From Klebsormidium nitens (taxonomy: Eukaryota > Plantae > Klebsormidiophyceae): a DNA stretch of 41,502 nt. The notes under the pieces are model-generated. The model did not search any database and was not told the DNA's origin. It was given only the letters and a program-made list of their open reading frames with translations. Location: NCBI GenBank assembly GCA_000708835.1, contig DF237660.1, positions 1-41,502 on the forward strand. Direction: 5' to 3'. The position numbers and the translations under genes were made by a program. This document shows, one piece after another, positions 1-33,151 of this stretch (position 1 is its first letter; every line of letters starts with the position of its first letter).

Positions 1-24
1 TCACATGCGTTTTTCTTGCTCCAG

Positions 25-5733: not shown

Positions 5734-6568
5734 GGTCTACATGTTGTAAGTGGCCATACGGATGCAATCTGACACCAAGTACAAGGTGTGGGCCCTAATG
5801 AGACCCAACTGCAGCGTGGCTTAATGGTGGAGTGGCAGGCATGTGTTCTCTGGTTGCTCTTCTGAGGAGGGTCCACACGTTGATATTGGTTAGTAAGGAA
5901 TTGAGTCTTGAGCCATCTGCAAGGTGTGGGCCGTCAGCAAGCCAGGCCAAGGTGTGGCTTTTGCAGGTGGTTGCAAGCATGCGTTCTCTGTTTCAATTGT
6001 TTACAAACAAGTCCACACCTTGCGTCTGGACCCTAGGATTTCAGTCTTGTTCCAACTACGACGTGTGGACCATCAGCATACCCAGCCGCAAAAGAGCTTC
6101 CGCAGGCGCGCACTTTCTGATTGCCCCCATTTGGATTGAACCCACATGTTGCTACTGGTTCCTAGAAAAATCAAGTCTTCAGCTCCTGTGGGTCACATGC
6201 AAGCCAGGCCACAACTTGGAATCTGGAGGAGATGGCAGGCACGCCGATCTTTGGTACTTGCTTTGAATTGGGGCCACACCTTGTCATTATCATTGGAAGT
6301 CCAGTCTTGCGCCACCTTAAATGGAGCGATTTGCGGGGCATGCAGTTTTTGATCGCTCTTTTGAATGGGTCACACGTTGTATATGGTAATTAGGGATCTA
6401 GCCTTTAGCCATCTGCAAGGTCTGGACCGTAAGCAAGCCCGGCCAGAGCTCAGTTGCTTGGGGGGATTGGGGGGCACAGGCGCTTTCTGACACCTGTTTT
6501 GATTCGAGTCCACACCTTGTAAGTGGTTCTTAGAGATCGAGGCTTCTGCCATCTGCAAGGTATGGACC
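5734..6568. repeat. Degenerate cluster of the ~62-bp palindromic repeat family, mixed orientation
   Basis: Units at ~5734-5794, 5870-5932, 6011-6071 (reverse), ~6270 (partial), 6367-6430 and 6507-6568, e.g. ggtccacacgttgatattggttagtaaggaattgagtcttgagccatctgcaaggtgtgggcc. Confidence 0.75.
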
Positions 6569-6730
6569 ACACGCGAGCCCGCCGCACGTCTTAACAGGGT
6601 TCATGGGAGAAAGGCCGCATCCAATCGGCAGGCATGTGCCGTTCAACTTCCAGGCCTTTAGAAGGTAGCGAGCAAGAACAGCGGGTGCTGTGGGTTGTGA
6701 CTAACACGCGGTACTCTTGCTTCGTTGCAG

Positions 6731-9700
6731 AAGCCGTCGCCGGGTGCGAGCACTGCTCAGGGAATTTGCCTTTCTCCGACGCCCCCGACGATCGACGCGG
6801 GCACCCATGACTGTCAGGCAAAGGCTCTTTCCCTCTGTGCCATCCGCCAGCTCGCCCCAATGGCTGTGGCAGGACCGTCCGCCGGCATTTCAGTGAGGGG
6901 CTTGCGTGTGCTCCGCAAGCGCGCAGGGATCGTGTGCCGGCGCGCTCAAGGGGAGTTGGGGCCTGCAGGTCTTCTCTGGTCGGAGGCTGCCTGGGTTGGC
7001 AGCTTGCGTGCTGCAATGGGTGGCCTCAAAGGGCTAGCAAATCTGCCAGATGTCGATCTGCTGAGTGGGTTCGAAGAGGTTCTTGCCTCAGTCAAGAGGT
7101 CTCACCTGGAGGGGCTCAAGCAGCCAGCGGGTGTGTCCCGCAGATTCCGCAAAGCAGGACGGCAAACCTCCAGTTGCCCCCGCCCTGCAGCTCGCAGTGC
7201 AGAAAGGAAAGCAGCTCAGCGCCTTGCGCGCTCGCTCTGCGAACCAGAGGACACAGGTAGGATAGCTCGTTCCCGTTCTTGGTGATGCATCTCAGCGCCC
7301 GAAGCTCAGGTCTGAAGCAAAACGTGATGCGAAACAAAGCAGTTGCAGAGAGACTTGGAATCTTCTGAAAATGGGGTGTGTTGACTATTGGGGTCTTTGC
7401 TGGGAGACTCGAGTAGCATCTTTGGGTGCCAGAAATGGTGCGCTGTTCTTTTTATGGGCGGGGCTGTCAAGTGTACGGAAAGTATTTCCGTTTGCCCTGG
7501 CTGCGCTCACAGCTCCTTTGGAAATGTTACTTAGGAGATGAGTTTCGAGTCCCTCAACTACTTTTTGGGAATTGAAGCGCCTTTCAATCAAACATCACAG
7601 CACTCTGCAAGCACACTAAGCATCACCTTCACTGGTTGCCTCTTTTCCAGTTCCGTACGCACTATACTGCCACGAGTGCGGCGCCGGTGCAGACTGTGGG
7701 TTGCGTGGAAGCAAGGAAGGGGGGGAAGTGAAGTACGTTTGCAATGAGCACGCTGACTCGTACCGCTACTTCAGCATCGACAAGGACCGTGCAGGTGAGC
7801 GCTGCATGGATCTGCTTGTTCGATGAGTTGGTCGGCAAACAAGTATTCAAGCGCACACTTGCACTTTTTGGGCAGCACCATAGCAGGGTCCTGCCATGGA
7901 GCCGATCTAGAGCCTAAATCCACTATAATCTGTTCCTTGCAGCGTTGGGACGCGCAAAGGCAAAGGTCGTGGGAAAAAAGGATGTGGCATCGCCGGCCGG
8001 AGACCAGACTCGCAGTCAGTCAGGTGAGCACTTAACCGCAAACGAAGCTGACAGGATATGCGTTATCGACCAATCTGAAGCAAGTGTCCCATTGAGTGCT
8101 TGCCATACTTTTCTTTCATTGCAGGCATATTCAAAGTTGATCCGGATACTAGGATGCAGAGGTTGTTGATGTATTGCTCGTGAATTGCAGCGTGCAACAA
8201 TACCTTCCAGCGAAGTGGGTTGTACTACGATGCAGCGCCCAAAAGCAGACGCCTCACAGGTGAGACACTGATCGAAAGGGCCCCCTAGCTCAAGCTTTTG
8301 CGACCCCCTTGTGCTGCTCCAGAATCTGTTGCCTTCTTCGCCCTTTGATCTTGACATCCTTCTACTGGAAGCTACGTCCTGCATCCTGCATCCATTGCTC
8401 ACATCCGATGTGGTTTCAATGAACAGCGACGCTCCTGATCATCGGGGGAATTGAGCCCAATCCCGGCTGGGGGCCCGACGAGGTGAGCGCTCAAGGCAAG
8501 TCAGCGCCAGGTCACGACATCGGCACAAGTCGGCCACTCATTCCACTGCCGTCGCTTGAGGTGAGCGTACGTCTGACCCTCTTGCAGTTCGTTGTTTCAG
8601 GAGCATCCTCTGTTGATGACTGAACCCTTAACCAAGTTGAGTAGCAGGGCGTCTTCTGTGGCCATAGCTATCAGTGTAGGCGAGCAGGCTCTGCACTTGT
8701 GCTGACATACGGTTGTTGCACAAAGGAATGAGCCTGAGCTTTCTTAATTGGTCCTCTTATGTGATATGCAGGAGGTCTACGGCAAACCGCTGTTGTCCGA
8801 GAGCACGTACCCACTTTTCGAAGATTGGAGGAAGCGAGCACGTTTGAGCAAGCAAGTGAGTTTAGTGACCAAGCAGAACCAAGCGGTATTTGATTCGTGA
8901 AAGTGGGCACATGCACTGTGTTCGTGACTTTCTGCAGCGTCGAATCTTGTATGGAAAGTCGAACGATGCAAATTTAGTCGAAGCACGTGGCAAAAATATG
9001 CCTTTTTGCTTGTTGCATGGATACTGCTTTGTAGTGATATCGGAATTAGATTGACCAGAACAACGGGTTTGTCAATCCTGTGGGAAGAAGCTGCGCAGTG
9101 ATTCTCCCAGAGCGGATCTTTCTGCACATGCAATTGACTTGTTCATTTTCCTCTTTCCAGGTGGGAATCAGCTGTGCAGCCTTGGAGGGAGGCGTTGCTT
9201 CAGGAGAATACGACCGCACGGGAAGGCCCGAGTCTGCGGAAGAGATGCCAAGTCTGGACAGAGAATTGGTCGACGAAGAACTCAGTCATCTGGACAGGAT
9301 TGAAGAGGGTCTTCTGACTGCCCTGGTAAGACCTGAGTTGTAATCTCTTCGCTCTAGTTGGGAGCACCTGAGTTGGGAGCTGTTACGGATGCTTTCTGTC
9401 CTCCTTTTGCAGGCAAGTTGTTGGAGATCATTCAAAGCATTCCGAACTGTTTTCACCTTGGACATGCATGGTTTGTAATCTTACTCAGGTCGCTTGTTCT
9501 CTTTCAAGGTGGAAAACAACGGGGGGGACGAAAGGAGCCAGCTGTCCACTTCGCTGAGAGAAGTATCTGGCGCTGTAAACGAGAACAAGGGATGCGGCGC
9601 CGCAGCAAAGGTGAGGATCCAATCCTGAGGTGCGGACTTCAATCGAGCTCTGGTCAATCTGTGCTGCTCACCTTTGCTTCTGGAAAGGCCACAGAAGCTC

Positions 9701-12700
9701 GATGCTAGCTTCTTTCTTCGAAGTGTTGAGTATGAGCACTGTTTTTGGGCCAGATTAGTATCCTGTTGTGGCTCTCTCTCTTTCAAACTGATTGCAACCT
9801 GCGGACCATCAGGTGTCGGCAATTCGTAACATTTGACGGACTAGCTGGCTGCGGTGCACGAAGTGATCGCCGCTAGTCGTCGCTGTTGCATTAGGTCGTC
9901 CTTCTGATCAGAGCCGTTCTATTCTTTGTCCAGATAAGCCGTGGCAACAAGCGGTCGGCGGCGATTGCGGCCAGTGAGTCCGATTCTGAGCAATCAGGAT
10001 CTGAAGAAGGCGAGGACATTGAGGGGGCCGAATTTGAGAGTGTGGACGAGTCTTCAGACGGGGAGACATCTCAGGACCGCCGTATGATCGACGACGGAAG
10101 CCAAGACGAGGAGAATCCGGTGATCGCGCAAGGCAAAATGCGCGCCGCCGGGAACTTCGATCATGAGCCGGACATCGCCCAGCTTCTGGCTGGGCGCTTC
10201 AAGCCGCAAGCGCCTCGACAGGCGACCAAGGCGCTCCAAACCGGACGCCAAGACCGTCTCCTGCCTTCACGGTCCAAGTCCGCAGCCGACGGGGGCAGCC
10301 CTTCGCGGAGCTCTTGCTCTACCGCGAGCGACGGGCGGTGGGTGGGTGCCCAGGTTGATCAACAGCCGCCGGCCGCCGCAAGTGCTGGGCTCTTGCCGCT
10401 GCGCTCCGGGAGCTTGCAGTCGGAGGAGCTCGAGAAGGACGATTTCGACGTGAGCCTGGTGGTCGGCTGACAAAAGGCTCCTATTTCGGCTGACAGATGA
10501 ACATATCTCGTTGCCTTCGGTCAGGCCGCCTGCTTTTTGCATGAATATGATTCGAATGATGAGGAAGCCTTTTAGATATTGCTTCAGGGGTTCGCAACCT
10601 GTGTTCACGTTGCTGGAAGTGAGGGGGTTTGAGGCCTTTCGTCTGAAGGTGCACGAAATTTGTCGGGTCCGGGCAGGCGTCTGCTTCCGGGACGAACCTT
10701 TTGAAGTCGGAAGCTCTGTGCACGTTGCTGGAAGTTAGGCCCCGGTTTTCCGAGGAAGTGGGTTTTCTTTATCGCGAGGGGTTGATCAACCGAGTCAGAG
10801 AGGAATTTACGGATTTTGCCTGTACATATGAACACCCGCTGATAAATGCGTGGCGATTTTGTCTCTGTCATTCTCGACACTCAGGTGGCTTGGACACATC
10901 CTGGTGACGATTCCTGCGGGTCGGGTGAGGAGGAAGCGGTGGAGTCAGGCCGGCTGCGGAGGCTGCGAGTTGTCAGCGACGAATCGGAAGAGGAGCGTCC
11001 TATTCCCAGGCAGGGACGCAAGGTCGTCCTTTCGCGATCCCCTTCCGCCGAAGACCTCCTTGCAGAGCCGGCGTCTACTGCGCCCGCACAAGGAAATCAG
11101 GTACGTTCTTGCAAGAGCTGAAAGCCTCTTCCGTTGTGAACTTAAAAAGAGCAATATTCAGCCGGAGATGCGCGCAAAATCTGGCCTTTTTCAAGGCGTT
11201 TTCTGGTGACGGTTTCACTTTATCGGGTCGTTGGCATCCACTGTTGGATCTGATGAACGTGCTATTGTTGTAAGGTAAGGTTGGCAGTCCGCTTTGCCTT
11301 CTTATGGTGGTTTCCCCTGTTGGTGTCCACTTTTGAGTCTGATTGGAGTTGCTGAAGGCCTCCAGCCACCTACAAGGTGTGGACCGTAAGCCGGTCCGGC
11401 CATAGCGCACATTTTAGGGCGGACGGTAAGCACAGGGCCCCTCTTCCTTCTCATTACTGGTCAACACGTTGCCTTTGGTTTTAAGGAATTGTATGCCAGG
11501 TCAACTGCAAAGTGTGGACCGTAAGCCGGCCCGGCCGTACCACAGATTACGAAGCCGAAGGCAAGCACAGGCCACGGGTCCACACGCTGTCTTTGGTTTT
11601 AAGGAATTGTATGCCAGGCCAACTGCAAAGTGTGGACCGTAAGCCGGCCCGGCCATACCACAGATTATGAAGCCGAAGGCAAGCACAGGCCACGGGTCCA
11701 CACGTTGTCTTTGGTTTGAAGGAATTGTATGTCAGGCCAGCTGCAAGGTGTGGACCGTAAGCCGGCCGGGCCATGTCGCGGATTTTAGGGCGGACGGTAA
11801 GCACGGGGCCCCCTCCGCTTTCTCATACTGGTCCATACGTTGTCTTTGGTTTTAAAGAATCCTGTCTTCAGCCAACTGCAAGGTGTGGACCGTAAGCCGG
11901 CCCAGCCATACCACAGATTTGGAGCCGAAGGTAAGCACAGGCTCCCACCTTCCTCGGGTCCACACGTTGTCTTTGGAATTAAGAAATCATGCCTCTGGCC
12001 ATCTGCAAGGTGTGGACCGTAAGCCGGCCCGGCCACGCCACCGATTTCGAAGCCAAAGGCGGGCACGGCCCGGTCCACACGTTGTCTTTGGAATTAAGGA
12101 ATCATGTCTCTGGCCATCTGCAAGGTGTGGACCAAAGCCAAGTATCTCTCCATCGCGAAATGCAATCATAGACTCCACTTTCACGTCAGCTCATGATGTG
12201 CGTGTCCATGTGTGCAGGAATCTGAGGGGACAGAAGGCGATGGTGAAGATGTGCGCCAGCAGCCCCGATGGATGTCTGCTGCGGATCTACACGTAAGTCG
12301 AACAATGTGCGCTCCAATGACTGCTCTTTCCAGCCCCTCATGACAGTCAACCAGTGTAAAGTCTTTGAAGAAAGGGGCAACGTTGTTGCTTTGCAAAGTC
12401 TCGGATCCTCCGACCTGCTCTTTGAAACAGCCTGGAAGGCCACTGTGTCTTGATCAAGGGCGTCGAGCTGAAAGAGACCAAGTTTGAGTCGCTCGCGCGC
12501 ACCATCGTCCAGAGTTGCTTCATCCCGTCTCTAATCCCCTTGTCTTTTGCAGGACGATGGCCCTTCCTCCGACCGTGTGCATCCGGCTAGGGAGCCGCAT
12601 TCTGCTGCTGCGGAGCTGGCACCTTTGGTGAGTCCACTCGCCTTCGTGTACGGGGAATGGGCATCTTGACAGTAATCTGGTCGCTGTTGACCCGGATCGA

Positions 12701-15700
12701 ACCTTTGTCGCTCCGACCGCCGAGCCCCTTCCACTCGACAGTCCCGCTCAGTTCCACGCCCCACACGGCGAAGAAGTGCGAGATGAGGTACTCCAACCAG
12801 CTCACGTAGTTATAAAACTTCTCTCCCTCGTCCCAAACAAGAGCTTGCTTGTCGGGTGAAAGCGTCCACTGGCAGTAGAAGGAGGGGAACTTCTTTGCGA
12901 TGTCGTATCCCTCCCCGGAATAGATGCGCTTGCGCACATGTCTGTCGATCTTTACCGGGCGCTTCTCGACAATTGCGTAAGGGAGCTCCAGGTCCTCCTC
13001 GTGGCGGTGGTCGTACACGGCTTCCAGAATAGCGGTCTCCTCAGCAGTCAAGGGTCGAGAAAGGGCGAAGTGACCGGTGAAATGCGTGTCGTAGCCCATG
13101 ATTGCAATGCCCTTTGAGTGCAAAAGCGTTTCCCCTAAGTATGGCAAAAGCGCGTGCTGAGCCGCTTTCCAAATCTTTCGCCCCCAGGTTCGATCTCGGG
13201 AAGAGGGGGCAGGGGGGTCCCCATCGGTGGCGCGCCGACCAGTTAAGAAGAAGCCACGGTAAGCCCGTTGCGCACTTGATTTGATCGTCCTGGGCTCAAC
13301 TGTTGATTCTGTCGTTGGAAAAGCCGTGCATCGAGTGAGCAGCCTGGAGAGGTGCCTCTTCAGGTGGTGTAGGCCGTGCTGTCAGCCCTGCTCAAAGTAG
13401 CAGGCTCGTGTCTGAAGGGGGTTTTTGCCACTAACCAGACTCGCTAACCAAGCACTAACCATAGCATGCAAGTCTGATTAGCAGCTCCTAACCAGACCCG
13501 GAACACCGCAGCTTCTTTCTACTAACTCGACATTCCCTTCATGCACAGGAAACGCACCAAGCCGAGTCCTGCCCCAATGGACGAGGCGACCCGAACCGCT
13601 GGACAAGCGGCTCTTCAAGCTCATTTCCGCAACCTCAGGGAATCGAGGCTCCATGGAACCTGGCAGGAGGGGCAAGTTGTACAGCTAACTGATCCGGGTG
13701 ATCCTGGAGACTCGCTTCATGCTCCCGACGCCGTAAGTCGTCCGCAAATCTGTGGCCTTTGGAGCCAGCTAGACCGCGCAAACCGCTGGCAATCATAATT
13801 GGCTTGTGCGCACAGCCTTGCAAGACTCTTGACAAGCAGGGTGCAGTGCCCCGAATTTGAGATTGAGACTTTGTAAAGCACGTTTTTGTCGGAATGGTTA
13901 CTGTACATGATCTGTAGCCTCTGCTGGCACTGCCTCCTCCAATCTTATGCAGGCCTGCCCCCACTCCAACCAGCGTTTCAGTCCCGTTTATTAGTGCTCG
14001 CTTCAAAACTCACCCGTCTGCTATATTTTTGCCCTCAGGTCCTTGATGAGGAAGCGAGACCATCGACATCACTGGCGCCAAGGACTGGTCGACCAGCTCA
14101 AAAGAAGCGAAGGTGAGTTCTGTGGCCGACTTGGTGCGTCATTCTTGGCTCACCTGGTGCATCATGCAACCGAAAGCGGTGCAAGCAGTAAAGGAAGGGC
14201 AAAAGAAAGATGTACTCCTTTGTTTATCGCAGGTTCTTTTTGCCAGTGCCGAAAGAGCGTCCGACTTGTAATTCTGTCATCAACTCAACTTCCTTTATCC
14301 CACAGCAAACGGGCAAAGCCAAGTCCTGCCCCATTGGACGAGGCGGCTCGGGCGGCTAATCGAGTGGCGGTTGAAGCTCATTTTGGGGCACTGGAGAGAT
14401 CGAGGCCCCATCGAATCCGGCACGAGGGGCAAGCTGTACATCGAGCGGAGTCGTCCGATCTGGGAGGGCCGCACCATGCCGTGGTAAGTGACCTGCAGCC
14501 CTAGTACCCTTTGCACCTCTTGCGGGCGCCTATGTCACTGCTGGGCGCCGTGGGCCATCATGTCTGCACCTCAAGTCACGCAAGACACCGTGCAGACTGC
14601 TCAAGTCAAGACTTGCTGGGTTTGATTTCGAACTCTGCGGTTGTCATTTGCTCTCAATCCTGAGGTTGGCGTACCATCATGAAAGCAAGTAAGGAATAGG
14701 CCAACTTCCTTTGTGAACAGCCAACAGTGCAGGGTCTTGAGGAGTTCGATTCGCCACCTGTGTACCACTTCAGACACCAGAAAGCCCATGATCCGTCCAA
14801 TTTCGCTCACAAGCATTTTGACCTCTCTTTGCAGGCAGCAGCGCGACCGATGCTGGAGGCGCTGGGGGCGGAGGAGCAGATCGCCCAAGAGGCAGCTGCA
14901 GTCGAGGCCCATGTGGACGCGGCCCAGAACGACATAGAGGGCCAGCAGGAGCGCGAGTGAGCCACTGCTGCTTTGTGTTGCTTTGCGTCTGTGTGTGTCG
15001 ACCAGCTGCCTGCACGAATGATTCTCAAACTTCGTCTTGGCCAGGTTGTATTGGGATGCGATTCTCTGGCCGTTTTGATGGAGGCATGCGCGGTGGACCG
15101 TTCCCAAGGGCTTTCTGGAAATGTTTGAGAGGAGAAGTGGGATTGAATACGATAGGAGAAACGGAACGAGCGTTGGGAATGGAGCGCATTCGAAGCACTG
15201 AGAATGCCTGGTTTTTGCAGGCACTCCGAGATGGCGATGCAGCAGCACGTTCTGCAAAGCCCACAGGAGCAAGAGACGCTCGGAGACGCTGAGGTGAGCC
15301 TGACGTCAACATTTGCTGACGGCGGGCACGAACCTCCCCCCTCTCCTTTGTGTTCTTTCAACTGGTCCACACGTTGTCGTTGGTACTAAGGAATGCTGTC
15401 TTCAGCCAATTGCAAGGTGTGGACCGTAAGCCGGCCCGGCCATACCGGGTTGGCAAGACAAACGGTGGGCATGCGCCCCCACTTAATGGGTCCACACCTT
15501 GTACTTGGTTATAAGGGAACGAGGCTTCAGCCATTTGCAAGGTGTGGACCATGTCGAGGCAAGCAGTTTGTAGGCTCGAGTGTGAGATTTTTCGCTGAAT
15601 TGCATGCTCCTGTGTTTTCTGCAGGAGCCCGAGGCGCCCCAGCAGATCTGGGGGGTTCCTGCCGAGGATGTCGGCAACGCGACAAGCTCGCCCGCCAGTG

Positions 15701-18700
15701 CAGAACTCTGTCAGCCCAGCACAGCCCCCGACCTCGACGAGCCTGCCCAATCTGGGAATTGGGTTTCGACGGAAGATGTAAGTCTCAATTGCTCCAGAGA
15801 AACGCTCAATGATAACTGATCAAATCACGTCGTGTATGCTTGGTCCGTAGTAATCGTCAAAGCTGAGCGGTTGTTGATCCTCTTCTTCGCTGAAGTAACA
15901 AACATTGAGGCCTTCAGGGTCTGTATCCAACTGATATCTGATGTAGGGAGCCACCGAGCTCCTGTCCCAGTCCTTAAAGCCGCCATCCTCTGTGAACTCC
16001 TTCAGCAGGTCCGGCCGTTGCAATTTACTTGTGTTGCCGCACTTGCCCATTCGACGAAGGTCGTCGATTGCCTCCAAGGCAGCTTCTAGGAACAGCCTTG
16101 CCCTGTCGCAAGCCTCCTTGTCATTGCGATCGAGCTCAAAGAGATCCTGTAGTTGCTCGTTCGAGATTGGTGCTCCTTTTCCGGCGGCGAAAGACATGAG
16201 ATTTTGCCTTTCTGCAGCACAACGCTTCCCTAAGTAAAAATCTTCATCACAAGTCGTCTGTGGCCGCGCCCCCTTGTTCGGACCCCATCATTGACCTGGT
16301 CCTTCTTTTGTGCAGGATGTCCCTGTGGTGGCGCCCGCCTCTCGAGTGCGCCCTGGCGAGACTCTGGTCCACAGCGAGCACGACGGAAAACTGTTGACCG
16401 TCAAGAAGGCGGCGCTGGGCACCTTTTTCTTCGCCAAGCGCAAGTTCGACGATAAGGTTGACTACCGGGATGCGAAGAACGGGCCGCAGGGTTTCTGCCG
16501 ACGTTATGGAGAAGTGCTCCGCCATCAGGTCGAAATCCGTCGCCTGCGCCCCTCTCGGGAGTTTGGGTCCTACCCAGACTGGCCCTCGGCGTTCCCCAAA
16601 CTGCGCAGCGAGCCTCACTTGGAGGAGGCCATCAAAGCGGGGTGTCCCTGCAAGCCGTACCTGGATCTGGAGAGAGACGGGGGGCTGCCGGACGGGGAGA
16701 CCCTCGAGACGGTCATTGCGGCCTTTGAGGAGGCAATCACGATCGTCTTCAACTTGGACTACGGCCTCAAGCTCCCAGCGGAAGCCTTCAACTGGATCCC
16801 CTGCGACTACGGGCCGGGCGGCAAGTTTAGCCTGCACCTGGTCGTCTCCTCCCATTCCCCCCAGTTTGTCTTCCGGTCCAACCTGGCAGCCCCGGCGGAC
16901 CCTCAGGGAGCGGGCCATCTCGCGAGAAAGCTCGGCCAGCGCTTGCCCGACCGCTATGCCGAGCTCATCGACCAGTCGGTGTACACGAGGAACCGGGGAA
17001 TCAGACTCCCCTACTGCTCCAAACCCTCCACTCCTCAAAGCCGCCTCATCCCCCTGGACGAGAGCAAGCCGTACGCGGACGCCTGCATCACCTGGTTCGA
17101 TGACCACGTCCAGACGATCAAGGTCCCCAGCAGCGAGATCCCCGACGTCGTGCGAGCGGGGCGTCCCCGCAGCAGGCCCGAGCATTTCCGGTACCAAAGC
17201 CCCAAGGTCGCAAGCATGTATGAGATCCAGAGGTGCACCGAGCTCATCCAGACGCTGCACCCGACGGCTTACCGCAGGGGGTCGGCAAACTCGCTGAACT
17301 TCAGCTGGCACGATCGGAGCGAGCCGTGCTACTCGGGGCACGTGCATGCTGGGGGGAGGGACATCCTCTGCATCGCGGCCCCGGAGAAGAACGCAGTCTT
17401 TGCCAAGTGCTGCAGCGAGCGAATCGATCCAACGACGGGCGTGTGCTGCAAGGACCTGCCGTCCAAGTACCTCGGGCCGTACTGGGTGGATTGCGATACG
17501 TGGAAGGACGGTGCTGTGGAGATCGACATGAAGTACCTGCAGCGGAACCCGCTGGCTGCCGCGCCCATGGACCTGGAGCAGATCCGTGGCGGCTTCCGCC
17601 CCCTGACCAACGGGGTCGTTTTAACGACATCATGAACAAGTAAGATCGTTCACTGCGCAAGGGACCTTGGTGCGCGCGCGCTTCAGGCGTAAACGTGTGA
17701 GTCTGGTCGCTGTTGCTTGGTAAGTGCTGCGTCGCTGGTCGCTGGACTCTTAGGCTCAGTTTGTCTGGGATTCTGCTTGGTACTATTGGCAGCCGGTTAG
17801 CGCTGGTCTTGGGCAGATGTTGTGCGTTGGGGAATAGAGGATCGTGCAGAGAACTTGAGGCAAACAGCAGGCTGATCAGCCCTGCTGTTGGAAGGTGTTT
17901 AGACGCTTTTAGGTCTGGTTGACCCCAGGATTTTGATCGCTGTCAAGGAATCGGGACCAGATCTGAGTTGGGAGGCCGAATACATGCCTTTTTCAGAGGG
18001 TTTTGGCAGCGTACAACGCTGCAAACCTGGTTGTGATCAGCGCTGTAAGTCTGCTTGTAGTTGTGTGCTGTTTTGCGTCCGTTCAAAGGGTGCTTGTTAG
18101 CGTTTGAGCAAGGGTTTTGCAGCAAGAACCAGACTGCTGTCGCGCCCCGTGGCGCATGCGTGTCGCTCACATTTTGGCAGCCTAGATAGCGCTTCAGATC
18201 AGATCAGCTGACACCTGATTTGAGGACACCCCGGCGTCAGATTCGGAGCGATTTGGGATTGTGAAGCAGCTTGCAGACAGCCGTCAGGTGTCGAGACTTG
18301 AGGCGCATCTCAAATTGCATCAAGAGCGCGCGTTTGTGGCTGTGGTGGTCAGACAGACAGGGAGGATAGGCAGCTCGACTGTAGTGCATACTGAGGTGTT
18401 GGTGCTTCAGTCTTGCAGCCGTCTTTAGTTTTCGGAAAGCCAGCGCTGTTTAGCGAAAGGGTCTTCATAAGGTTCCTTTGAAATTCTGAACGTTCTTACA
18501 ACCTTTTCGTGCAGGTGGCAGGAGGGTCAGTACAAAGCCGTGATGCTGAGGAGTCCCATGGGGAGCGGAAAGAGCACGCTTCTTCAAGCCCTCTTGGCTG
18601 AAGAACCTGAGCCCGAGACGGTCAACATGGCCTCTTACCGTCGCACGCAAGCTCTGGACGCTCAGGGCAAGCACAAGGACTTTTCTCACTACGAAGTCCT

Positions 18701-21100: not shown

Positions 21101-21502
21101 ATGGAGCACCTCGCAGATGGACGCATACTATGCCGAGCCAGTGGGGTCACCTTTGAAGGTCGCCAGAATCGCATACGCATGCTTCGTCCTGGCCAAGAGC
21201 TCGTGCTTCGCAAGCAACTAATGGACGGATATAGCGCGTTTGGCATCGGCATCTTTGACCCTACGGATCGTGACTCCTCGCCTTTAGGCTTCATAGCGCG
21301 CGAAATCAAGTACCATAGAGTGTTCGACCCGATTCGCAGAGGGTCCGAGGTGCAAGCACGATTGCACCGCGTCAATCGGGGAAGCCGGGGCCGCTACGGA
21401 CCGTGGGGGTTTCAAGTGGAGATTGTGGACAATCCGGGCTCCAGTATATGCTACGATCCCGCTTTGGACGACACGCTCTGCGAGATTGTAATAAGAGATT
21501 GA
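21101..21502 (+). CDS. Stand-alone HIRAN-domain protein
   Basis: SGVTFEGRQNRIRMLRPGQELVLRKQLMDGYSAFGIGIF...LGFIARE matches the HIRAN pattern G-v-x-f-x-GRQ...l-x2-G-x2-l-x-L-x-r...N/D-x-y...AI-x-v...lGy-i-x-r. Intronless. Confidence 0.8.
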   Translation: MEHLADGRILCRASGVTFEGRQNRIRMLRPGQELVLRKQLMDGYSAFGIGIFDPTDRDSSPLGFIAREIKYHRVFDPIRRGSEVQARLHRVNRGSRGRYGPWGFQVEIVDNPGSSICYDPALDDTLCEIVIRD

Positions 21503-21666: not shown

Positions 21667-22221
21667 ATGGATGCCATCCTTGGCTACCGTCCTCATGCCC
21701 GCGTTGCCATCCTGGACATGGATAAACAGATTCTTGAAAGTGCTCGGTCTGCAATTGTGAGGGCATATCAAGACTTTGGATCCCTTGAGACGACGTTGGA
21801 TGCCATTGCCCTGGGCGGCATCCGATCTTTAGCAGAACCGTTCAATGTGTCCCATATCTGCAGAGCCCTCGTGCGCTCGTTGATTGCGGAGGGTTTTCAT
21901 GCCTTTTGGGATAAAAGCAACGATAATTGCCCGTACGCTGTGAAGGTTAGCTGGAGAGCTGCTCTAAGAAATGCGACTCAAGCACGGCGCCGAGCCCGCA
22001 AGCTGCGGGTCGTGACGTCTAGGGAGATTGTGCACGATGCTCGAGTGGTTTCTCCCGTAGACCACATGCAGCCAAGAGCAATATCCCCTTCCTTCTCATC
22101 TCGTCCTCCGAGTGTCATCTGGACGGATTTTAACGTGCCTGTGCTAGGCTTAGAGCAACTGGTGAACCCAGAAAAGGTTCGAGGCGCTCTCGAGTCTCCT
22201 AAATCCGCCCGGTCTGGATAA
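21667..22221 (+). CDS. Intronless hypothetical protein, possibly of a large-DNA-virus family
   Basis: 184-aa ATG ORF. PFNVSHICRALVRSLIAEGFHAFW...VKVSW loosely resembles the NCLDV hypothetical pattern 'yi-x3-L-x3-GF-x-V...isW'; the family call is weak. Confidence 0.55.
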   Translation: MDAILGYRPHARVAILDMDKQILESARSAIVRAYQDFGSLETTLDAIALGGIRSLAEPFNVSHICRALVRSLIAEGFHAFWDKSNDNCPYAVKVSWRAALRNATQARRRARKLRVVTSREIVHDARVVSPVDHMQPRAISPSFSSRPPSVIWTDFNVPVLGLEQLVNPEKVRGALESPKSARSG

Positions 22222-22285
22222 CGGAATATACAAAAAAGCCCACTTGTCTATTTCTGTACACCGCTGGTCACATTATCTAGAGCTA

Positions 22286-22411: not shown

Positions 22412-22497
22412 TTTTGAACCTCGATATTCACGTTATCTGCGGAGGGGGCCTTCAGCGTGGTCAAGATTTTCTCGCCAGTATCCAGATAACCTGAAAG

Positions 22498-23553
22498 ATG
22501 CAAGGGCCTGCCAAGAGCACACGACACATAACCACGGTTTCTGAAGGCGGAAGGCTATTACGCCAGGTCTTTGAGGATGGCGATCGAAATGAGAACACGA
22601 TCGGTCAATATTGCAAGCACGTCATGCGCTTGTTCCAGGGTTTGCACGGGCAAAGGGATTTTAGCAATTTGAAATGGCTCAAGGACGCTGACGGAATCAT
22701 CAAGTACTTTCAAGAAGCCTACCCCTCAAAGCTGTCGATGCAGGCCACTGGGATTAACCCGCTTCTTGTGATAGCGCGCAAAGCATTTCCCGATGACAAA
22801 CAGCTCTATGATGCTTACTATAAGCGGTACACAGAGGTTCGAAAGCTCATGGATCAAAGCAAGCCGCCTCTCCAGCAACTAACAGAGCGCGAAGCAGCAA
22901 ATTGGAAAACTTTGGATCAAATTAACGAGCGCAGAGTGGAGCTACAGAGGCACGTCAATCGCAAGATTCTGAACAAGAAGCCCGAAGATTTGTCCGACGA
23001 GGACAAAATTGTGCTTTTTTGCCACCTCGTATTGTGCCTTTATAGCTATCAACCGGCAATTCGCAATGGATGGGGGGATTGCCCCATCGTGCGCTTAAAA
23101 GACATTAAAACAGTTGAGACTCGCGAGATCATGTCTGGATCCGGAAATTATCTGTTGGAATTCGAAAAAGACGAATTTCGTCTGGTATTGAATGATTTCA
23201 AGACCGTCCGTCACCATGGACCGACTTCCGTAGACATGTCGACCCGCTGCAACAACGTCATCTCGGAATCGCTGGAAGTCTTTCCGAGGAGGTACCTATT
23301 ATCTCGAATCAGGTCGCCCGACAAGCCAATGAGCCGAAATTATCTCTCAAAATTTTGCAGCACAGGTCTTTTCAAGGACGCAAGCGTGGGTTCGTGTCTT
23401 CTTCGCAAGATTTGTGTGAGCAATCTCTTCAAAGACGCCCCGAGCATAGCCGAGCGTGACGACCTTGCGCGGAGCATGTTGCATACGGCCGCTATGGCAC
23501 AGCGAACCTACGAGAAAAAATTCGACCAACACGGCTCTCGGATCCGGTTTTGA
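22498..23553 (+). CDS. Tyrosine recombinase/integrase of the virophage / Polinton-like-virus / NCLDV type
   Basis: N-terminal core-binding-like helices (NTIGQY...LKWLKD). Catalytic set: LYSYQPAIRN (R), LNDFKT (K), SCLLRKICVS (R), ARSMLH (H), AQRTYEK (Y). Intronless, 351 aa. Confidence 0.85.
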   Translation: MQGPAKSTRHITTVSEGGRLLRQVFEDGDRNENTIGQYCKHVMRLFQGLHGQRDFSNLKWLKDADGIIKYFQEAYPSKLSMQATGINPLLVIARKAFPDDKQLYDAYYKRYTEVRKLMDQSKPPLQQLTEREAANWKTLDQINERRVELQRHVNRKILNKKPEDLSDEDKIVLFCHLVLCLYSYQPAIRNGWGDCPIVRLKDIKTVETREIMSGSGNYLLEFEKDEFRLVLNDFKTVRHHGPTSVDMSTRCNNVISESLEVFPRRYLLSRIRSPDKPMSRNYLSKFCSTGLFKDASVGSCLLRKICVSNLFKDAPSIAERDDLARSMLHTAAMAQRTYEKKFDQHGSRIRF

Positions 23554-23589
23554 ACGATTCACAATGTGCTCGCCACGTGGCAAATTCTT

Positions 23590-23943
23590 TCAGGACACTT
23601 GAATGCTTGTGAATGCACCCAAATGGAGCGAGGGCACTTCGGTCTCATCTGACGTGTCTGAAGACGCCATTTGATGATCAGCATGCTGCCATGCACGATG
23701 CGGACCGTTATCTACTGGAAAGCCTGCATCAAAGAGGCGCTGTAGAGTCCTCTGTTGACATGCATGCCCATTTTTGTAGCGCTCAAAGGCTTGGGCCAAA
23801 AGGATTGCATCCCTATGTCTGTAATAATACCTTTTCGTGTAAGTCTTTCGAGCATCCGGATGCTTTTCATAGAATTGCTTGATAGTTTTGCACACTTTGC
23901 AAGTGCAGCAATCGTTCAAAGCGCTTTCGTTATGCGACTCCAT
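23590..23943 (-). CDS. Small basic hypothetical protein
   Basis: ATG at 23943 (MESHNESALNDCCTCKVCKTIKQFYEKHPDARKTYTKRYYYRHRDAILL...). Cys cluster plus K/R/Y-rich helix; divergent from the primase gene. Confidence 0.45.
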   Translation of the reverse strand: MESHNESALNDCCTCKVCKTIKQFYEKHPDARKTYTKRYYYRHRDAILLAQAFERYKNGHACQQRTLQRLFDAGFPVDNGPHRAWQHADHQMASSDTSDETEVPSLHLGAFTSIQVS

Positions 23944-24033
23944 GCTCAGTACTGATATTATGGTAAGAAAATGTGCTTGACCCGACACCAAACGCACGTG
24001 CGTTTAAACAGACTGGTTTTAAATCTTGTCAAA

Positions 24034-26830
24034 ATGTACGAAGAAATGGCGGACGCCCAAGCTAGCTTCTCAGGACCTCCAACCGCTCAAGACCCTAGGC
24101 CCGTAGGGCCCCGAGCAGTTGCAGACGAGATCCAACGGCTCTCCAACGTTGGGCTCTATGCAATTCCCGTGCGCATGTTCTGGAATGAAACAGAGGGTAA
24201 GAAAGATGCCAAATTTCCACACAAGTACGCAAACATCACAACGCCCGAATTGTGGAAACATTCTATCGATAAAGCAAAGCAGGAAAGGAAGGACGCCAAT
24301 GGAGTCGCAATCCTCACACGTCCCAGTCGGATCTTTGTGGTTGACGTTGACGTTTCGAGCAACGATAACAAAAAGCCGGGAATTCAGCTCTGGAACCAAC
24401 TCGTCAAGGAACATGGTGAGCCTAAAACACTAAAGGCACAATCAGAATCCGGTGGGTATCATTTCTATTTCAAAGCAGCTACACCCGGCCTAAAATGCAG
24501 CCGTAATTTTGAGAGCATTAAGGTGGGTGAAACTACCTATGGTATTGACGGTCGGGCTGGTGGAGGGGTCGTCTTTGCTTTTCCCGCAAGCTACGTCAAT
24601 GATCAGGGCAAGCTTGCCACATACGAATGGCTTGGAGGGCCTGCTAGCTTTGAAGCGTGTCAAGACATGCCTCAATGGCTCGTAAAGTTTTTGAATGATC
24701 ACGTTCAACAAACTGCATTGGACCAGACTAAAAAGCACAAGTCATGCGAGAATGACTCGAATGCTACCCCATCCGTTGTTAAGAACTCAACATCGATGGC
24801 GTCAGCACCTCTTGGAAACGTGCAAGAGGCCGTGCCTGGATTGGAACGAGCGCGTGAAAAGATTGAGGAGTTGTTGCGTGCCAAAGCGCCGGACGACTCT
24901 AGTATCTTCAACGGAGTCGGGAGAAGAACCGCGAGTGGCTGGCAGATTCTGAAGTACAAATTCAACGGCACGCGAACTTGCTTAAACGGCAACCAACATG
25001 ACTCAAATAAGTTCAGCATCCTAAGCAATGGGTGCGTCCTTGTGTACCGCTGTCTGAGTCCAGGATGCATCGATCGACCAAAGCAACTACTCGGCGTCTA
25101 CTTTTGGCCTGAGTGTTTGCCTCTGAGAGTGGACGGGGAACTTTTCAGGACCTGCGAAAGCTACATTCTCCTCTTCAAGTCGTCAACAGATGAAGGGGAA
25201 GAGAAAAACTTGAAGAAGAAGAAAGAAGATGACGAACAAACAAGAAGAGCAAAAATGGACTTGCACGATCTCGTCTTGCGTACCATGAACCATTACTTTG
25301 CCGTCGTGCGTTCGACAAAGGCGATTTACCTGGAGACAATCTACTCGAGAGACGCAAACGGGAAGCTTGAGCCTGAGGAGACCATCCATCGGTCCGGCCG
25401 CGACTTCCTCGAGGTCCGCAAGAATTTTCAGCTTGAAAGCCTGTCTGGAAAGAGCAAGGAGGTTGCCAAATTTTGGGAGAGCAGTTTCAAGCGCCGAGAA
25501 TACGATCAGATTATATTCGAGCCGGACCCATCAAAGGTTTCCTCACGACATTTCAATCTGTTCAGTGGGCTTAGTTTCAAACCACTCGACCACAGATTGA
25601 CGGACTTGGAGCTCGTGGAGTGCGAGGAACATATGCCAAGGCTCATGTGGCACTTCCGCAACATCATGTGCGATGGCTCCAAGGAGCGGTTCGACTACAA
25701 TATCCGTTGGATGGCGCACGCCGTTCAGAAGCCTTGGAGGAAGATTGGGGTGGCTCTCGTGTTCCGCAGTGGGCAAGGATGCGGAAAGTCTGTATTGTGG
25801 GACTTTTTTGGACGGATGATCCTTGGCGGCAAGTATTACCTTTATTGTAACGAAATCGAAAAGATCATTGGCAAATTTAACTCACTAGCAGCCAACAGGT
25901 TGTTGGTTGTGTTGGACGAATGTGGCAGTTGGGGCGGAGCGTATCGAATGAACGATCGGATAAAGTCCCTGATCACTCAAGAAACAACATGTATGGAGCG
26001 CAAAGGCCAAGACCCTATCAGCGTGGACGACAAAAGCAATATCGTGTTCACTACAAATAATTTCTGGCCTGTGAAACGAGAAGCAGACGATCGCCGATAC
26101 TCTTGCCAGCAAGTCTCGGATGCCAAGATGGGGAACAAACCATACTTTGATGCCCTCGTGGGAGAGTTGGAGAGCCCCGAAACCGCTTATTCACCTCTAT
26201 CCGGTATCTGTCATCCATCGATATCTCCGACTGGAATCCCCAAAAGATGCCGGTCACAGCTTGGGGGAGGGCCTCAAAGAGCACTCGATTCCACCTCACG
26301 TCAACATGATGCAAGCACTGCTCGAGAACGGATGCTTCCATCCTTCTTTAGAGACATGGGTAGCATCAGCAGACATTAAGCGGACATATGACGTGTTTTT
26401 GCATCAGATGGACATCAAAGAAGACCGCCATACCGACATCAACGTCTTGATGCGCTCTCTGGTTGCCGTTTTTAAGATGCGACCGCAGGCACGTTCCATT
26501 GATAAGGTGCGGACCCACAAGGGATGGTGGTTTGCCCCACAGGGCGCTATTTGCGAGGCTCTGCATAAAGGCAAGCTTCTGAGCTCCACTGTTGAGTGGG
26601 TGGATACATGGCAACGGCTTGACTACGACAAAGATAAGGAGGGGCCATGGATGACAGAGCCAACAGCTCTTCAAGAGCTAGTCAATGCCTCAAAAGGTTC
26701 GCGACAATCCGTTGCAGATCAAAATTGTTCGTTCTGCTTGAACCGTCATGTGTGGGAGGTAAGACGAAGTAAAGACGGAGAAGTATCGACACGAGAGAGG
26801 CCAAACAATGATTCTTCTCAAAGTGGATAG
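24034..26830 (+). CDS. Intronless Prim-Pol (bifunctional primase/polymerase) + Zn domain + D5-like SF3 helicase, with local frameshifts at 26186-26270
   Basis: Prim-Pol motifs NGVAILT, IFVVDVDV, SESGGYHFYF, IDGRAGGGVVFAFPAS. CLNGNQH...YRCLSPGC. SF3 motifs FRSGQGCGKS (A), LVVLDE (B), KSLIT...ERKG (B'), VFTTNN (C), DDRRY (Arg finger). Three 1-nt indels restore PETAIHLYRYLSSIDISDWNPQKMPVTAWGEGLKEHSIPP, which continues in ORF 26120-26830. Confidence 0.88.
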
Positions 26831-26843
26831 ATACCAAATAGCT

Positions 26844-27049
26844 CATTACCCTTCTATTACCCTAATCACACACACACACACACATGACGGTACCCATGAA
26901 TGGTGCCTATACCATACATTCTATTACCCTATTACCCAATTACCCATTGCTTTTGCAAGTATGGAACCTCGTGAATTCCTCTCATCACATGACAGATGTA
27001 AAAACGAAAATGGAACTTGGGGCGGTGGGTAATGGGTAATAGAGTAATA
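26844..27049. repeat. ATTACCC iterated motif forming an inverted repeat between convergent genes; includes a short (CA)n tract
   Basis: tattaccctattacccaattaccc (26922-26945) versus gggtaatgggtaatagagtaata (27027-27049; reverse complement tattactctattacccattaccc). Two more copies at 26844-26863; (CA)n at ~26867-26884. Confidence 0.8.
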
Positions 27050-27059
27050 CAGAGGAACC

Positions 27060-30000: not shown

Positions 30001-32006
30001 CCAAGTGCAACATTGACTACCTCAAGGCAAATGCTATTCTACCCTCTGAAGCAGCATACAGACGCTACAAGGAATGTGCACTCAATCAATGTATCAATCC
30101 GTATGATGAAGGTGTTAGTTCTCACCAGGCCGTCGTAGGCAGTTGAGCAGCAAGCCGCCTCTTGCCCTGGGGCGATGCGGCAGATCCTCCGATAGGTTGT
30201 GATAGAGTAGCGCGCTCCGGCCGTTGTTAGCGCCCCCTTCCGGCTCTCCACTTGCCATGGTCGGCCGCACGGCGACAGCACCTCGACGGGTCGCGGGGCG
30301 CAAAAGTGCTTTGCTTTATCACGCCGCCGCACCCCCTCTTCGCCCCACCGTTCGCAAAGGCTCGCAACACTCGCTCCACCCCGGCTCATGACCGTGTCGA
30401 TCTTCCGATGGCTGTGGCCCATATCGAGGGCCGCCGCAGGGAGACACTCCCACAGCTCTCGTGAGTCCCGGTGGGTGCACGCAACTTTCGAGTCCGGCCG
30501 CCGGCAAAGCCGATCGTTGCAGACCCAGAGCTTTCCCTGCCCTGACGCTCGAAGCTCCTCCCTTTCCGCCCGTTTCTCCAAAACGGGTGTTGTGCGTGTT
30601 GCAACCTGAAGCACCCGTCCGTCTTCAGGTCGGAAGCTTACTGCCGTGCGTGACTGCTTCGTCCCTGCAAAACCTCTCTCCACGTGCGAGCACCCCTCCT
30701 GATCCGGACATCTGCTGCAAAAGGCATTCCTCCCTGTGAGCACGCAAACTGCTGGGAGTTTGTCGACTCCCGCCCCAGTGCCAACCACAAACAGACGGAG
30801 TCTTGGCCCCGACCATGCGGCCGCGTTGAGCCCACTGATTGGAGCTCCCAGACGGCCGTCCAGCTCGATGGGGAGGACCCGGTCTGGATTGCTCATGACC
30901 TTTCGTACAAAGCTTGAGCTCTCGTCAAACGGGCCAAAGTCTGGTCGCGCCCCCCCTGTGACGGATCCCCACCAGCCCTCCATAGCTGCGGTGTCTCTCA
31001 AAAGGCCCACTTCATGGTCTCTGCATGCTTTCTGGCCGCACATGCAGCGGAAGTTGCCCGCATGATCCACCTTGACGAGCCGAGGCAGATTGACCGGCTT
31101 CCCCCCGGTCTCTGACAAAGAGAACTCGAGAACCCGCCCGTCGCCCCCCAGATGCGGAACGAGAAACAGCCCCGCGCCAATGACGGTCGGAGGGATTGTG
31201 CACCGTTTCAACTCCTCCAATACTGCAGCCGTCCCGCATTCCTTCGGAGTGGGACCGGACTCGAGCGCCCTCTTTATTCCCCGTCTGGCGACCTTTGCCT
31301 TCTTGCAGCACGGGCACGCCTCCAAATCCCGCCTTTGAACAAAAAACTGGCGCCCCCCCTCCGCCGCGGGCTGCCCTAACTTCGGCTCTCTCAACTCTCC
31401 TGAGTCGGGAGAGGCCTCGTACTTCTTGAAGAGGTCACTTCGGTCTATTGCCTCTCCAGTGACCGTTGAGACAAAGGGGCGGCCCTCGGCGTATGCGGCG
31501 TCCAAACATCGGAGACAGAGGAGGTGTCCGCCGCCGCCTGGGCAGATGATCGCACCTCCACGGTTCCGTTTCCGCTCCCAGATGAACGGCTCGGCTCCTC
31601 GGGTGTACAGGGGCACGTTGCCTTTGCAGACACTGCCTTGGCACGGCACCCCAAAGCCGTCCTTGGTGAAGGCGCTCCCGAGCTTGAGGCGAAAGGCGTA
31701 CGCATAATCGAAGAAGAAGTCGTCGTTTCCTTGCTGTGCCGCTTATGAGGGGGTCCCGCCACGGATGCCGCCAGCGTGTGGCAGAGGGGGGACGGCTGCT
31801 GGCACGCTGCGAATGTCGCAGATTCTGATGGAAGTGCCGAGAGGGCTGTTCGGAGACGAGATATCAACGCCGCCGATTGTGACCGCCCCCAGAGCTCGCA
31901 CGTGCCCACCACCCGCCAATGCGCCGTGCAGATAGGCGTTTGGACCCGGAGCGGTCGATGCAAGCAGCTGCACTTCTTCTGTGGAGACCACTAGGCATGA
32001 CGCCAT
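27060..32006 (-). CDS. Two-exon SWIM/CxC Zn-cluster + Kyakuja-Dileera-Zisupton (KDZ) transposase (~1,320 aa); one in-frame TAA and one frameshift
   Basis: Exon 32006-30126 (SWIM-like RCMCGQKACRDH and FCSRCPDQEGCSH; CxC-like CAP..SPCGRPW...RICR...CCSTAYDGL) splices in phase to exon 29143-27060 (EDGIFNFSGTNLISHGLL...). KDZ core: GMFIACCQDQAPLGYHWLKGGES, TIVEDAAC, LNRVP, FLVDRFH, THTC, TTASEGINS. Lesions: TAA at 31743-31745 and a 1-nt break in the C4 run at 29060-29063. Confidence 0.82.
29223..30146 (+). CDS. Intronless F-box-like + XPA-like Zn-finger/DNA-binding protein, nested antisense in the KDZ intron (29144-30125)
   Basis: N-terminal LLNLPDLAASACTCK (F-box-like), then CAIC...TCLRC followed by LTTTEARKKYKIKDLALL...HP...TRYYREVDVRVLAIRERGG, the XPA C-terminal pattern (iT-x-TEAk-x2-Y-l...Y-x4-V-x3-A-x3-wG). 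Confidence 0.7.
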   Translation: MSLNEKFASALSIVGQKGLLNLPDLAASACTCKDTQAAIGTMMHDFPFSSNNSPGPLYVESVLPQECCAICSSAWTDLRWPMHPHKGLATCLRCLDLGLHSALDCLTTTEARKKYKIKDLALLQWTSHPLKTLQTRYYREVDVRVLAIRERGGPVGFREAQEARQTKIIMQRRKRLVKHYEDLANQGRCFQTQTVLAGLNLPECIDLRAKLESPKEGSERIFREEAIQQLSLLRRMVPLESPKKYSLLWTEPDYPLTVKAKCNIDYLKANAILPSEAAYRRYKECALNQCINPYDEGVSSHQAVVGS

Positions 32007-32291
32007 CCTGCAAATGGAGAATTGATTGCTTGTTGAGAGATTCACTTTTCCTTAAGTACCCCTTCGATGTCGCTTTTAAACCACATTTGCCATCACTTGT
32101 GTTTGCTCCCCGGCCCCTTGGTGACACGTTATAGCTGATTTAGACTGTTTCATTACCTAAAGTCAGAAAGCACGTGCGGTTTGGCGACCGTTGGATGCCT
32201 GCTACAGAGTAAAGCCCGCAGTATGGCCACGGGCTAACCTACGGTCCCCACGTTGCAATCGATGATCGGCGATGGCCCCGAACTGGCTGAT

Positions 32292-33151
32292 GGTCCACAC
32301 CTTGCAGTTGGCCTAACACACAATTCCTTAAAACCAGAGACAACGTGTGGACCCGGCCGTGCCCGCCTTCGGCTTCAAAATCTGCGGCGTGGCCAAGTTG
32401 GCTTACGGTCCACACCTTGCAGTTGGCCTTCCATACGTTTCCTTAAAACCAAAGACAACGTGTGGCCCCATGGCCTATGCTTGCCATCGGCTTCAAAACC
32501 TGCGGCGTGGCCGGGCTAGCTTACGGTCCACACCTTGCAGTTGGCCTTCCATACGATTCCTTAAAACCAAAGACAACGTGTGGACCAGCACCTGCGAACA
32601 CGTGGAGAAACGTGGCGCAATCAGTGCCCGCCATCCACTCTAAGATGTGTGGTAGTATGGCCGGGGCAGCTTACGGTCTACACCTTGTAGTTGGCCTTCC
32701 ATACGATTCCTTGAAGCCAGAGACAACGTGTGGACACGTGCTCTGTGCTTGCCATCGGCTTCAAAGTTTGTGGTGTGGCCGGGCCAGCTTACGGTCCACA
32801 CCTTGCAGTTGGCCTTCCATACGATTCCTTAAAACCAGAGACAACGTGTGGACCAGCACGTGCGAACACCTGGAGAAACGTGGCGCAATCAGTGCCCGCC
32901 ATCCACTCTCAGATCTGCGGAAGTATGGCCGGGCCGGCTTACGGTCCACACCTTGCAGTTGGCTGATGACAAGACTCCCTTAGACAAAGAACAACGTGTG
33001 GACCAGCATCTGCAGACACTTGAAGAACCGTGCCCTGATGGGGTGCCCACCATCTGCTCTAAAATCTGTGGTATGGCCGGGCTGGCTTCCGGTCCACAAC
33101 TTGCAATTGGCTGAAGACGGGTTCCTTGAAACCAAAGACAACGTGTAGACC
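32292..33151 (-). repeat. Tandem array of 7 palindromic units, inverted relative to the 11322-12133 array
   Basis: Units start (ggtccacaccttgcagttggcc...aaaaccaaagacaacgtgtggacc) at 32292, 32407, 32525, 32675, 32793, 32943 and 33091. Periods 115, 118, 150, 118, 150, 148, i.e. a 268-bp higher-order duplication. Confidence 0.93.

Follow-up and report, generated by a model that had tools for sequence, protein, structure and literature searches.

Introduction

Known self-copying DNA elements of eukaryotes use protein-primed PolB (Polintons), HUH proteins (Helitrons and Replitrons) or a whole virus (Teratorn). This report concerns a locus of the alga Klebsormidium nitens that holds a KDZ-like transposase gene, a tyrosine recombinase (YR) gene and two primase-helicase genes, PrimPol-UL9 and Prim-Pol/D5. 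The sequence analysed, referred to below as the window, is one whole K. nitens scaffold of 41,502 bp. The locus is one defective representative of an element, at least 27 kb in size, that Klebsormidium carries in multiple copies.

Giant KDZ transposons of up to 30.3 kb have been described, with fixed nested insertions and pseudogenised transposases (PMC12477816), and a 31.7-kb Zisupton has excised in Chlamydomonas (PMC9977147). Zisupton elements have terminal inverted repeats (TIRs) and 8-bp target-site duplications (TSDs); Kyakuja elements have 7-bp TSDs and no TIRs (PMC12730594). The Klebsormidium element resembles the giant KDZ elements of Ectocarpus, Chlamydomonas and Cryptococcus in its predicted CxC/DDE-type transposase of about 1300 aa, its size of about 30 kb, its cargo, its nested insertions and its pseudogenised copies (PMC12477816, PMC9977147, PMC11343200). 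It differs in that no primase, helicase or YR cargo is named for the known elements in the accessible text of these papers, and no TIR partner or TSD was found for it in the window.

A YR adjoining a primase-helicase, together with inverted repeats, has been proposed as an end module of polinton-like viruses (PLVs) (PMC11296320). The Klebsormidium element likewise has a YR beside a primase-helicase, and this YR is 23-24% identical to those of two virophage-type contigs (L002 and L006), which carry UL9-type helicases. Unlike virophages and PLVs, the element has no detected major capsid protein (MCP), penton, protease or packaging ATPase gene, and it has two primase-helicases, introns and a DDE-type transposase. 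The PrimPol-UL9 fusion is shared with an origin-binding protein of nucleocytoplasmic large DNA viruses (NCLDVs), found in a 1.02-Mb viral record (L009), but identity to it is only 23-26%, the two fall in separate clades, and the Klebsormidium gene is split by introns.

Two further systems combine transposases with other genes. Teratorn, a piggyBac-herpesvirus fusion, also combines a cut-and-paste transposase with viral replication genes, but as described it keeps a whole 180-kb herpesvirus with capsid and DNA polymerase (PMC10175614), whereas the Klebsormidium locus has a minimal primase-helicase/YR set and a KDZ-like gene. The 'Plavaka giant repeats' of Amoebidium are giant as well (up to 50 kb), with transposase and tyrosine recombinase genes (PMC11244446); they are EnSpm-related rather than KDZ (PMC12730594) and form tandem intron-poor clusters, for which the accessible text names no primase-helicase. 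Literature searches returned no element with the Klebsormidium combination, although subscription papers were mostly outside their scope, Repbase-type libraries were not covered and a database-only description could escape them. To that extent they agree with a preliminary description of the window, in which the gene combination was said to have no known precedent. The KDZ and Zisupton literature found does not mention Klebsormidium.

Results and Discussion

Gene content of the window copy

With moderate confidence, we interpret the locus as part of a family of giant KDZ-type cut-and-paste transposons that carries virus-type PrimPol-UL9, YR and Prim-Pol/D5 genes and has no detectable capsid gene. 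The four enzyme genes reported in the preliminary description are all present (Table 1), as judged by Pfam, fold matches, the ESM Atlas and motifs. Only the YR is intact among these core genes. Both replicase genes and the transposase gene are disrupted, and the word autonomous, which had been applied to the locus, is wrong for this copy. Intact copies would likely be an undescribed kind of giant transposon and may also copy their own DNA.

Table 1. Features of the K. nitens window. Positions are those of the 41,502-bp scaffold.
Feature	Position	Strand	Remarks
Left cluster 1 of 62-bp units	5871-6568	+	4 ungapped units, by profile
Upstream exons of long spliced gene	6926-16315 (mapped: 6926-7129, 8390-8560, 9931-10380)	+	homologous to N-terminal parts of other copies
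Left cluster 2 of 62-bp units	11459-12133	+	6 units, spacing 115-135 bp, by profile
ORF of uncharacterised phage-type family	12590-13100	-	intronless; phrog_38666 E 2.7e-22; antisense within spliced gene
Left cluster 3 of 62-bp units	15364-15550	+	2 units, by profile
PrimPol-type AEP exon	16316-17641	+	best PDB sequence match human PrimPol
UL9-type SF2 helicase exon (KFL_007110030)	18515-20672	+	PF02399 Herpes_ori_bp E 1.8e-21 on 18471-20669
Likely HIRAN-domain ORF	21101-21502	+	Atlas 0.94, 27/30 matches with PF08797; recognition score just below threshold
ORF	21667-22221	+	no family match
YR	22498-23553	+	intact, intronless, 49% GC, 351 aa; R/K/xxR/H/Y motifs, fold match
Prim-Pol + NrS-1/D5-type SF3 helicase	24037-26830	+	intronless, 50% GC; PF09250 E 3.5e-15; DUF5906 E 1.2e-19 (Pfam on 23956-26376)
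KDZ-like transposase gene (KFL_007110040)	~32009-27063	-	two large exons, intron ~30124-29147
Nested antisense ORF, 306 aa	29226-30146	+	fills KDZ intron; no family match
Right array of 62-bp units	32292-33152	-	7 units, spacing 115-150 bp; inverted vs left clusters, directly upstream of KDZ
Candidate right terminus, 57 bp	33608-33664		shared with other contigs, diverging after 33664/33665
RETICULATA-like host gene	~33966-36440	+	PF11891 E 1.8e-15, Pfam signal ~35.1-35.8 kb; right flank, outside element
AEP, archaeo-eukaryotic primase; ORF, open reading frame; SF, superfamily.

The KDZ-like product matches CxC5/KDZ clusters in the ESM Atlas (0.96), with 10 of 10 family matches in one clan. CxC4 is found in eight of ten homologues at E 0.002-0.04, below the cut-off, and the gene has no PF18758 match; its AlphaFold2 (AF2) model is of low confidence (predicted local distance difference test score, pLDDT, 35). 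The residues at about 28754, 27446 and 27242, which are conserved in A3, form a candidate D/D/E triad. The KDZ features found are a transposase, by the Atlas match, the sub-threshold CxC4 and the candidate D/D/E, and a dispersed multi-copy family. The window copy is interrupted twice, by a stop codon in frame at 31743-31745 and by a shift of frame near 29060. The antisense ORF in its intron has what we take to be an F-box and XPA-like look and no match in searches; KFL_015070010 carries a different inserted sequence at the same intron position.

The AEP exon matches human PrimPol at only E 0.04, yet all three catalytic motifs (DxE, SxH and the third aspartate) are aligned; it matches no Pfam family. 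Owing to a frameshift near 17620-17626, the frame stops before the splice to UL9, which is out of frame in the window copy. A contig of run X1, identical over 17320-18766, carries the same frameshift; X1 may represent the assembled strain. Three other copies (KFL_000090020, KFL_012130020 and KFL_005490050) have gene models with AEP and UL9 fused in frame. The UL9 exon is 100% identical to KFL_007110030 and has intact Walker A and B motifs and an AG acceptor at 18513-18514. The upstream exons are 46-62% identical to N-terminal parts of KFL_005490050 and KFL_012130020, and in other copies the model of this long spliced gene ends in PrimPol-UL9. In a UL9 subgroup (P0058, P0060, P0063 and P0066), DTAKS replaces GSGKS at Walker A in four copies.

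The catalytic-type R, K, R, H and Y positions of the YR are all present. It has no Pfam match, and the top fold matches of its AF2 model (pLDDT 84.5) are the Cre, Xer, Tn1549 and lambda integrases (best E 2.7e-6). When translated, the stretch 3' of the YR gene (23577-23879, +) is 60% conserved in two Logan proteins that have read-through C-termini, which suggests that the spacer between YR and D5 is common to copies. The Prim-Pol/D5 gene has two frameshifts at about 26200-26280; phage and plasmid proteins match it at only 25-33% identity, over the helicase. Judging by consecutive KFL numbers, YR and D5 seem to be unannotated on the window scaffold. The genes fall into two groups by composition: YR and D5 have 49-50% GC and are intronless, and KDZ (62-64%) and PrimPol-UL9 (59-64%) are intron-split.

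Copies on other contigs

Protein records and contigs (runs X1 and X6, and non-NCBI contigs) gave access to the other copies. All family counts are lower bounds, as length limits and gene annotation restricted the searches. KDZ-like genes are present on 23 K. nitens scaffolds, the window included, at 72-96% identity; UL9 genes are found under six K. nitens scaffold numbers, and there are 28 close YR relatives at 49-82% identity. Beyond the window, KDZ has YR or YR-D5 as a partner on five contigs and UL9 on one. The latter, scaffold 1136 (12,742 bp), has UL9 (KFL_011360020) and a KDZ C-terminal exon (KFL_011360040), in an arrangement that fits the 10.6-kb span in the window. On scaffold 892, KFL_008920020 is a chimera of a YR fragment and D5 adjoining KDZ (KFL_008920030), as expected from an internal deletion within the same gene order; D5 pairing elsewhere is known from this one chimera. 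KDZ and YR also appear together on four non-NCBI contigs, where 4 of 13 KDZ contig sizes recur among the 37 YR ones. YR and KDZ identities are correlated over six pairs (rho 0.80, permutation p 0.029, 14 comparisons), suggesting joint inheritance. Because the element genes repeat and pair on other contigs, the window locus is not a one-off pile-up of insertions, a chance outcome that the preliminary description had allowed for.

Several observations weigh against a single composite family. There is no second contig with all four genes among the protein records and contigs compared. The pairing on non-NCBI contigs is a proxy, namely identical contig size in bp, and two of the six YR-KDZ pairs use YR fragments of 62-74 aa. 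Outside the window, UL9 and YR were not seen paired (none of eight UL9 contigs matches a YR or KDZ contig by size), only one of the five other UL9 scaffolds has a KDZ match, and for a YR group at about 50-59% identity the matches include no KDZ partner. The KDZ identity itself is a candidate assignment, with one language-model search and motifs as its basis. The presence of two primase-helicases in a single element is a redundancy that points more to accretion than to need. For the right end, no inverted partner of at least 9 nt and no TSD were found in the window.

Viral gene content and relatives

Capsid, A32 and PolB families were not found in 119 of the 163 ORFs of at least 90 aa, nor in 150 of the 209 shorter ones outside known genes; the larger ORFs outside this set are mostly alternative frames over known genes or arrays. 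A tblastn search with four virophage MCPs and four ATPases also gave no match, although it covered the window copy only and very divergent capsids could escape it. These results agree with the preliminary description, which had recognised no capsid, packaging ATPase or PolB. Of the virophage/PLV genes, the YR and primase-helicase module is present, and MCP and packaging ATPase were not found. No Pfam match was obtained for the protein-primed PolB and rve integrase of Polintons/Mavericks, nor, at E 1, for the DUF3435 of Starships. In Starships the DUF3435 recombinase is the first gene at the element end; the YR of the window lies mid-element.

Relatives of the viral-type genes are distant. YR and a UL9-type helicase occur together on virophage-type contigs (L001, L002 and L006), and the Klebsormidium proteins are only 22-29% identical to those of the virophage contigs and L009. 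Quick trees place the Klebsormidium UL9s in one clade, beside about 25 unnamed, mostly PrimPol-fused proteins and separate from both the virophage clade and L009. The trees (quick and FastTree) have strong composition bias and a midpoint root; P0207 and P0128 were left out of the second, and rows labelled PLV are virophage-type contigs (Sputnik MCP in L006, L010, L013 and L015). Sister proteins P0099, P0101, P0102, P0104, P0106, P0107, P0115 and P0122 are PrimPol-UL9 fusions of 1035-1422 aa on contigs of 3.5-28.5 kb. The sister clade has no match in IMG/VR and may mark related elements in other hosts.

The locus could instead be a fragment of an endogenous giant virus or of a virophage or PLV, with capsid genes elsewhere or deleted. 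The fusion in L009 and the YR and UL9-type helicase of virophage contigs would suit such an origin, and K. flaccidum/nitens is tabulated with Phycodnaviridae-like DNA polymerase, MCP, ATPase and VLTF3 genes in the accessible part of a survey (PMC5294986). This explanation is nevertheless improbable. None of the NCLDV core genes MCP, PolB, A32 and VLTF3 was found on the whole 41.5-kb scaffold, and a conventional NCLDV fragment with capsid genes on the wider contig, another outcome considered earlier, is not borne out. PrimPol-UL9 and KDZ have introns of spliceosomal type, unlike the gene-dense, intron-poor blocks of endogenous NCLDVs, the genes are dispersed over many scaffolds at 57-90% identity, and the Klebsormidium UL9 clade stands apart from its viral counterparts.

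The 62-bp palindromic units

The repeated unit is a fixed-length 62-bp core in which imperfect inverted arms of about 20 bp surround a 22-bp centre. A profile detects 19 ungapped units (scores 38-97; best score -19 in three shuffled 20-kb sequences), 12 on the plus strand in three left clusters and 7 on the minus strand at the right. The exact unit pattern has 10 matches against 0.00 expected. Additional degenerate units are visible by eye near 5734, 6137 and 6273. The left clusters sit between exons of the spliced gene that runs into PrimPol-UL9, and the units have the same orientation relative to each gene, in the PrimPol-UL9 introns and upstream of KDZ. The genes had been described as bracketed by mirror-image arrays. 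The left and right arrays are indeed inverted, but the three left clusters lie among exons, and the right array ends about 510 bp short of the likely element end.

Two other roles for the units were considered. The arrays were rejected as TIRs, given that homologous gene sequence lies to the left of two clusters and shared sequence runs on to 33664. Repeated mini-exons were set aside, as the lengths of the supposed exons do not keep one frame and an acceptor is lacking from several units. A donor-like GTAAGC follows most units, and CACAG closes several of the 50-56-bp spacers (e.g. 11521-11576); the spacers resemble very short introns.

The units bear on whether the window holds one element or two or three separate ones, that is, a KDZ-YR-D5 unit and an independent PrimPol-UL9 element, nested in common repeat-rich regions, with the 62-bp unit as a separate miniature repeat. 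Separate elements would suit the lack of UL9-YR pairing outside the window, the four of five other UL9 scaffolds that have no KDZ match, and the different GC and intron content of the modules. We regard this as quite unlikely, since the PrimPol-UL9 introns and the region upstream of KDZ contain the same unit, oriented alike with respect to each gene, and UL9 and KDZ occur together on scaffold 1136 at a compatible distance. Moreover, two of the four unpaired UL9 scaffolds measure just 10.7 and 13.3 kb. In further X1 contigs the unit adjoins AEP or UL9 sequence, weakly, the sides being only 22-40 nt.

Inverted palindrome arrays would also suit YR or origin sites. An autonomous capsid-less replicon, along the lines of the preliminary description, can be envisaged, in which the YR would perform excision and integration, circles would replicate from the 62-bp palindromes, and KDZ would be captured cargo. 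Consistent with this are the intactness of the YR alone among the core genes, the divergent YR group without a KDZ partner among the matches, and the sister clade of about 25 PrimPol-UL9 proteins on short contigs with no IMG/VR match. We consider such a replicon unlikely, because the YR lies mid-element, the arrays are not at the ends, and KDZ copies outnumber UL9 copies 23 to 6. The unit, with its 20-bp arms and 22-bp centre, is also unlike a core YR site, which has a 6-8-bp spacer.

Element ends

The supported extent of the element is at least 6.9-33.66 kb. The earlier limits of 5734..33151 are too narrow on the right, as the element continues past 33151, and possibly on the left as well. 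The stretch 33608-33664 is common to at least four X1 contigs, each of which then departs from the window and from the others; two diverge after 33664 and two after 33665, with agreement of 0.65 and 0.63. A contig of run X6 tracks 32825-33663 with four differences, and another departs at 33428. These alignments make 33664, about 300 bp before the host gene, the likely right end, the alternative being a short unrelated repeat. The candidate end finishes in CCCC at 33664. Kyakuja elements end in CA..TG.

Near-identity coverage by X6 is almost full over 1-5884 and 31900-33663 (depth about 2), with little of 6004-20000 and none of 33709-37500; contig depth was not taken as copy number, and X1 depth follows GC. 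The left end, not found in the window, may be at or beyond the scaffold start, because X1 has variant contigs over 1-5300 and X6 covers 1-5884. An internally deleted copy at another site would fit the X6 coverage; no contig joins across, and it was not counted.

Proposed assembly and activity

The data favour a KDZ backbone with acquired viral genes over a reduced giant virus with an acquired KDZ, the latter an origin suggested in the preliminary description, because KDZ is the most numerous gene and lies near a likely end, and because giant KDZ elements of about 30 kb with nested insertions are known. The split in GC and intron content by gene suggests a layered build. The intron-containing, GC-rich backbone (KDZ and PrimPol-UL9) would have come first, and the intronless 49-50% GC cassette of YR and Prim-Pol/D5, which is like the virophage/PLV end module, would have been inserted early and then inherited with KDZ. 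The KDZ transposase, encoded beside the right end, would move the whole unit and leave 7-8-bp target duplications. In intact copies the primase-helicases are predicted to load at the 62-bp palindromes and amplify an excised form, and the YR to resolve multimers, whereby the element would gain copies. The window copy could move only in trans.

It is conceivable, if doubtful, that these elements represent a new class of capsid-less, PolB-less, self-replicating giant transposons, made of KDZ and a primase-helicase/YR replicon, with the 62-bp palindrome arrays as origins and with sister-clade relatives in other hosts. According to the accessible text of a review, novel transposons of unprecedented size could arise from a nucleic-acid-primed polymerase combined with a primase and an appropriate integrase or recombinase (PMC6431247). 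If our preferred reading of a KDZ-type family with viral genes is true, the family would come close to that idea, minus PolB, in an alga that can be cultured and is a relative of land plants. It would add another transposase-virus fusion and allow a direct test of the idea that a cut-and-paste element equipped with a replicon can grow and multiply. Should the viral genes be mere cargo, an unannotated giant repeat family is still at hand. The element is real, multi-copy and composite, and apparently undescribed so far.

Flanking and minor features

The plant gene reported alongside the element is confirmed as RETICULATA-like by its Pfam match. At the other side, window positions 1-2975 (+) contain a spliced gene that could be cargo or flank; it has no Pfam match and what we take to be the look of a Crinkler-type restriction-endonuclease-like domain. 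The variant X1 contigs over 1-5300 suggest a second near-identical copy of that stretch. The HIRAN-like ORF has no Pfam match. The gene model of KFL_005490050 (P0096) has a ubiquitin-like domain upstream of PrimPol-UL9, with no counterpart mapped in the window. An exon at 8430-8475 (+) reads LLIIGGIEPNPGW and is shared with KFL_012130020; we take it to recall a 2A ribosomal-skipping motif with two key positions changed. A direct repeat (13533-13626 and 14290-14383, 74% identical) seems to have arisen by duplication of an exon in the upstream spliced gene.

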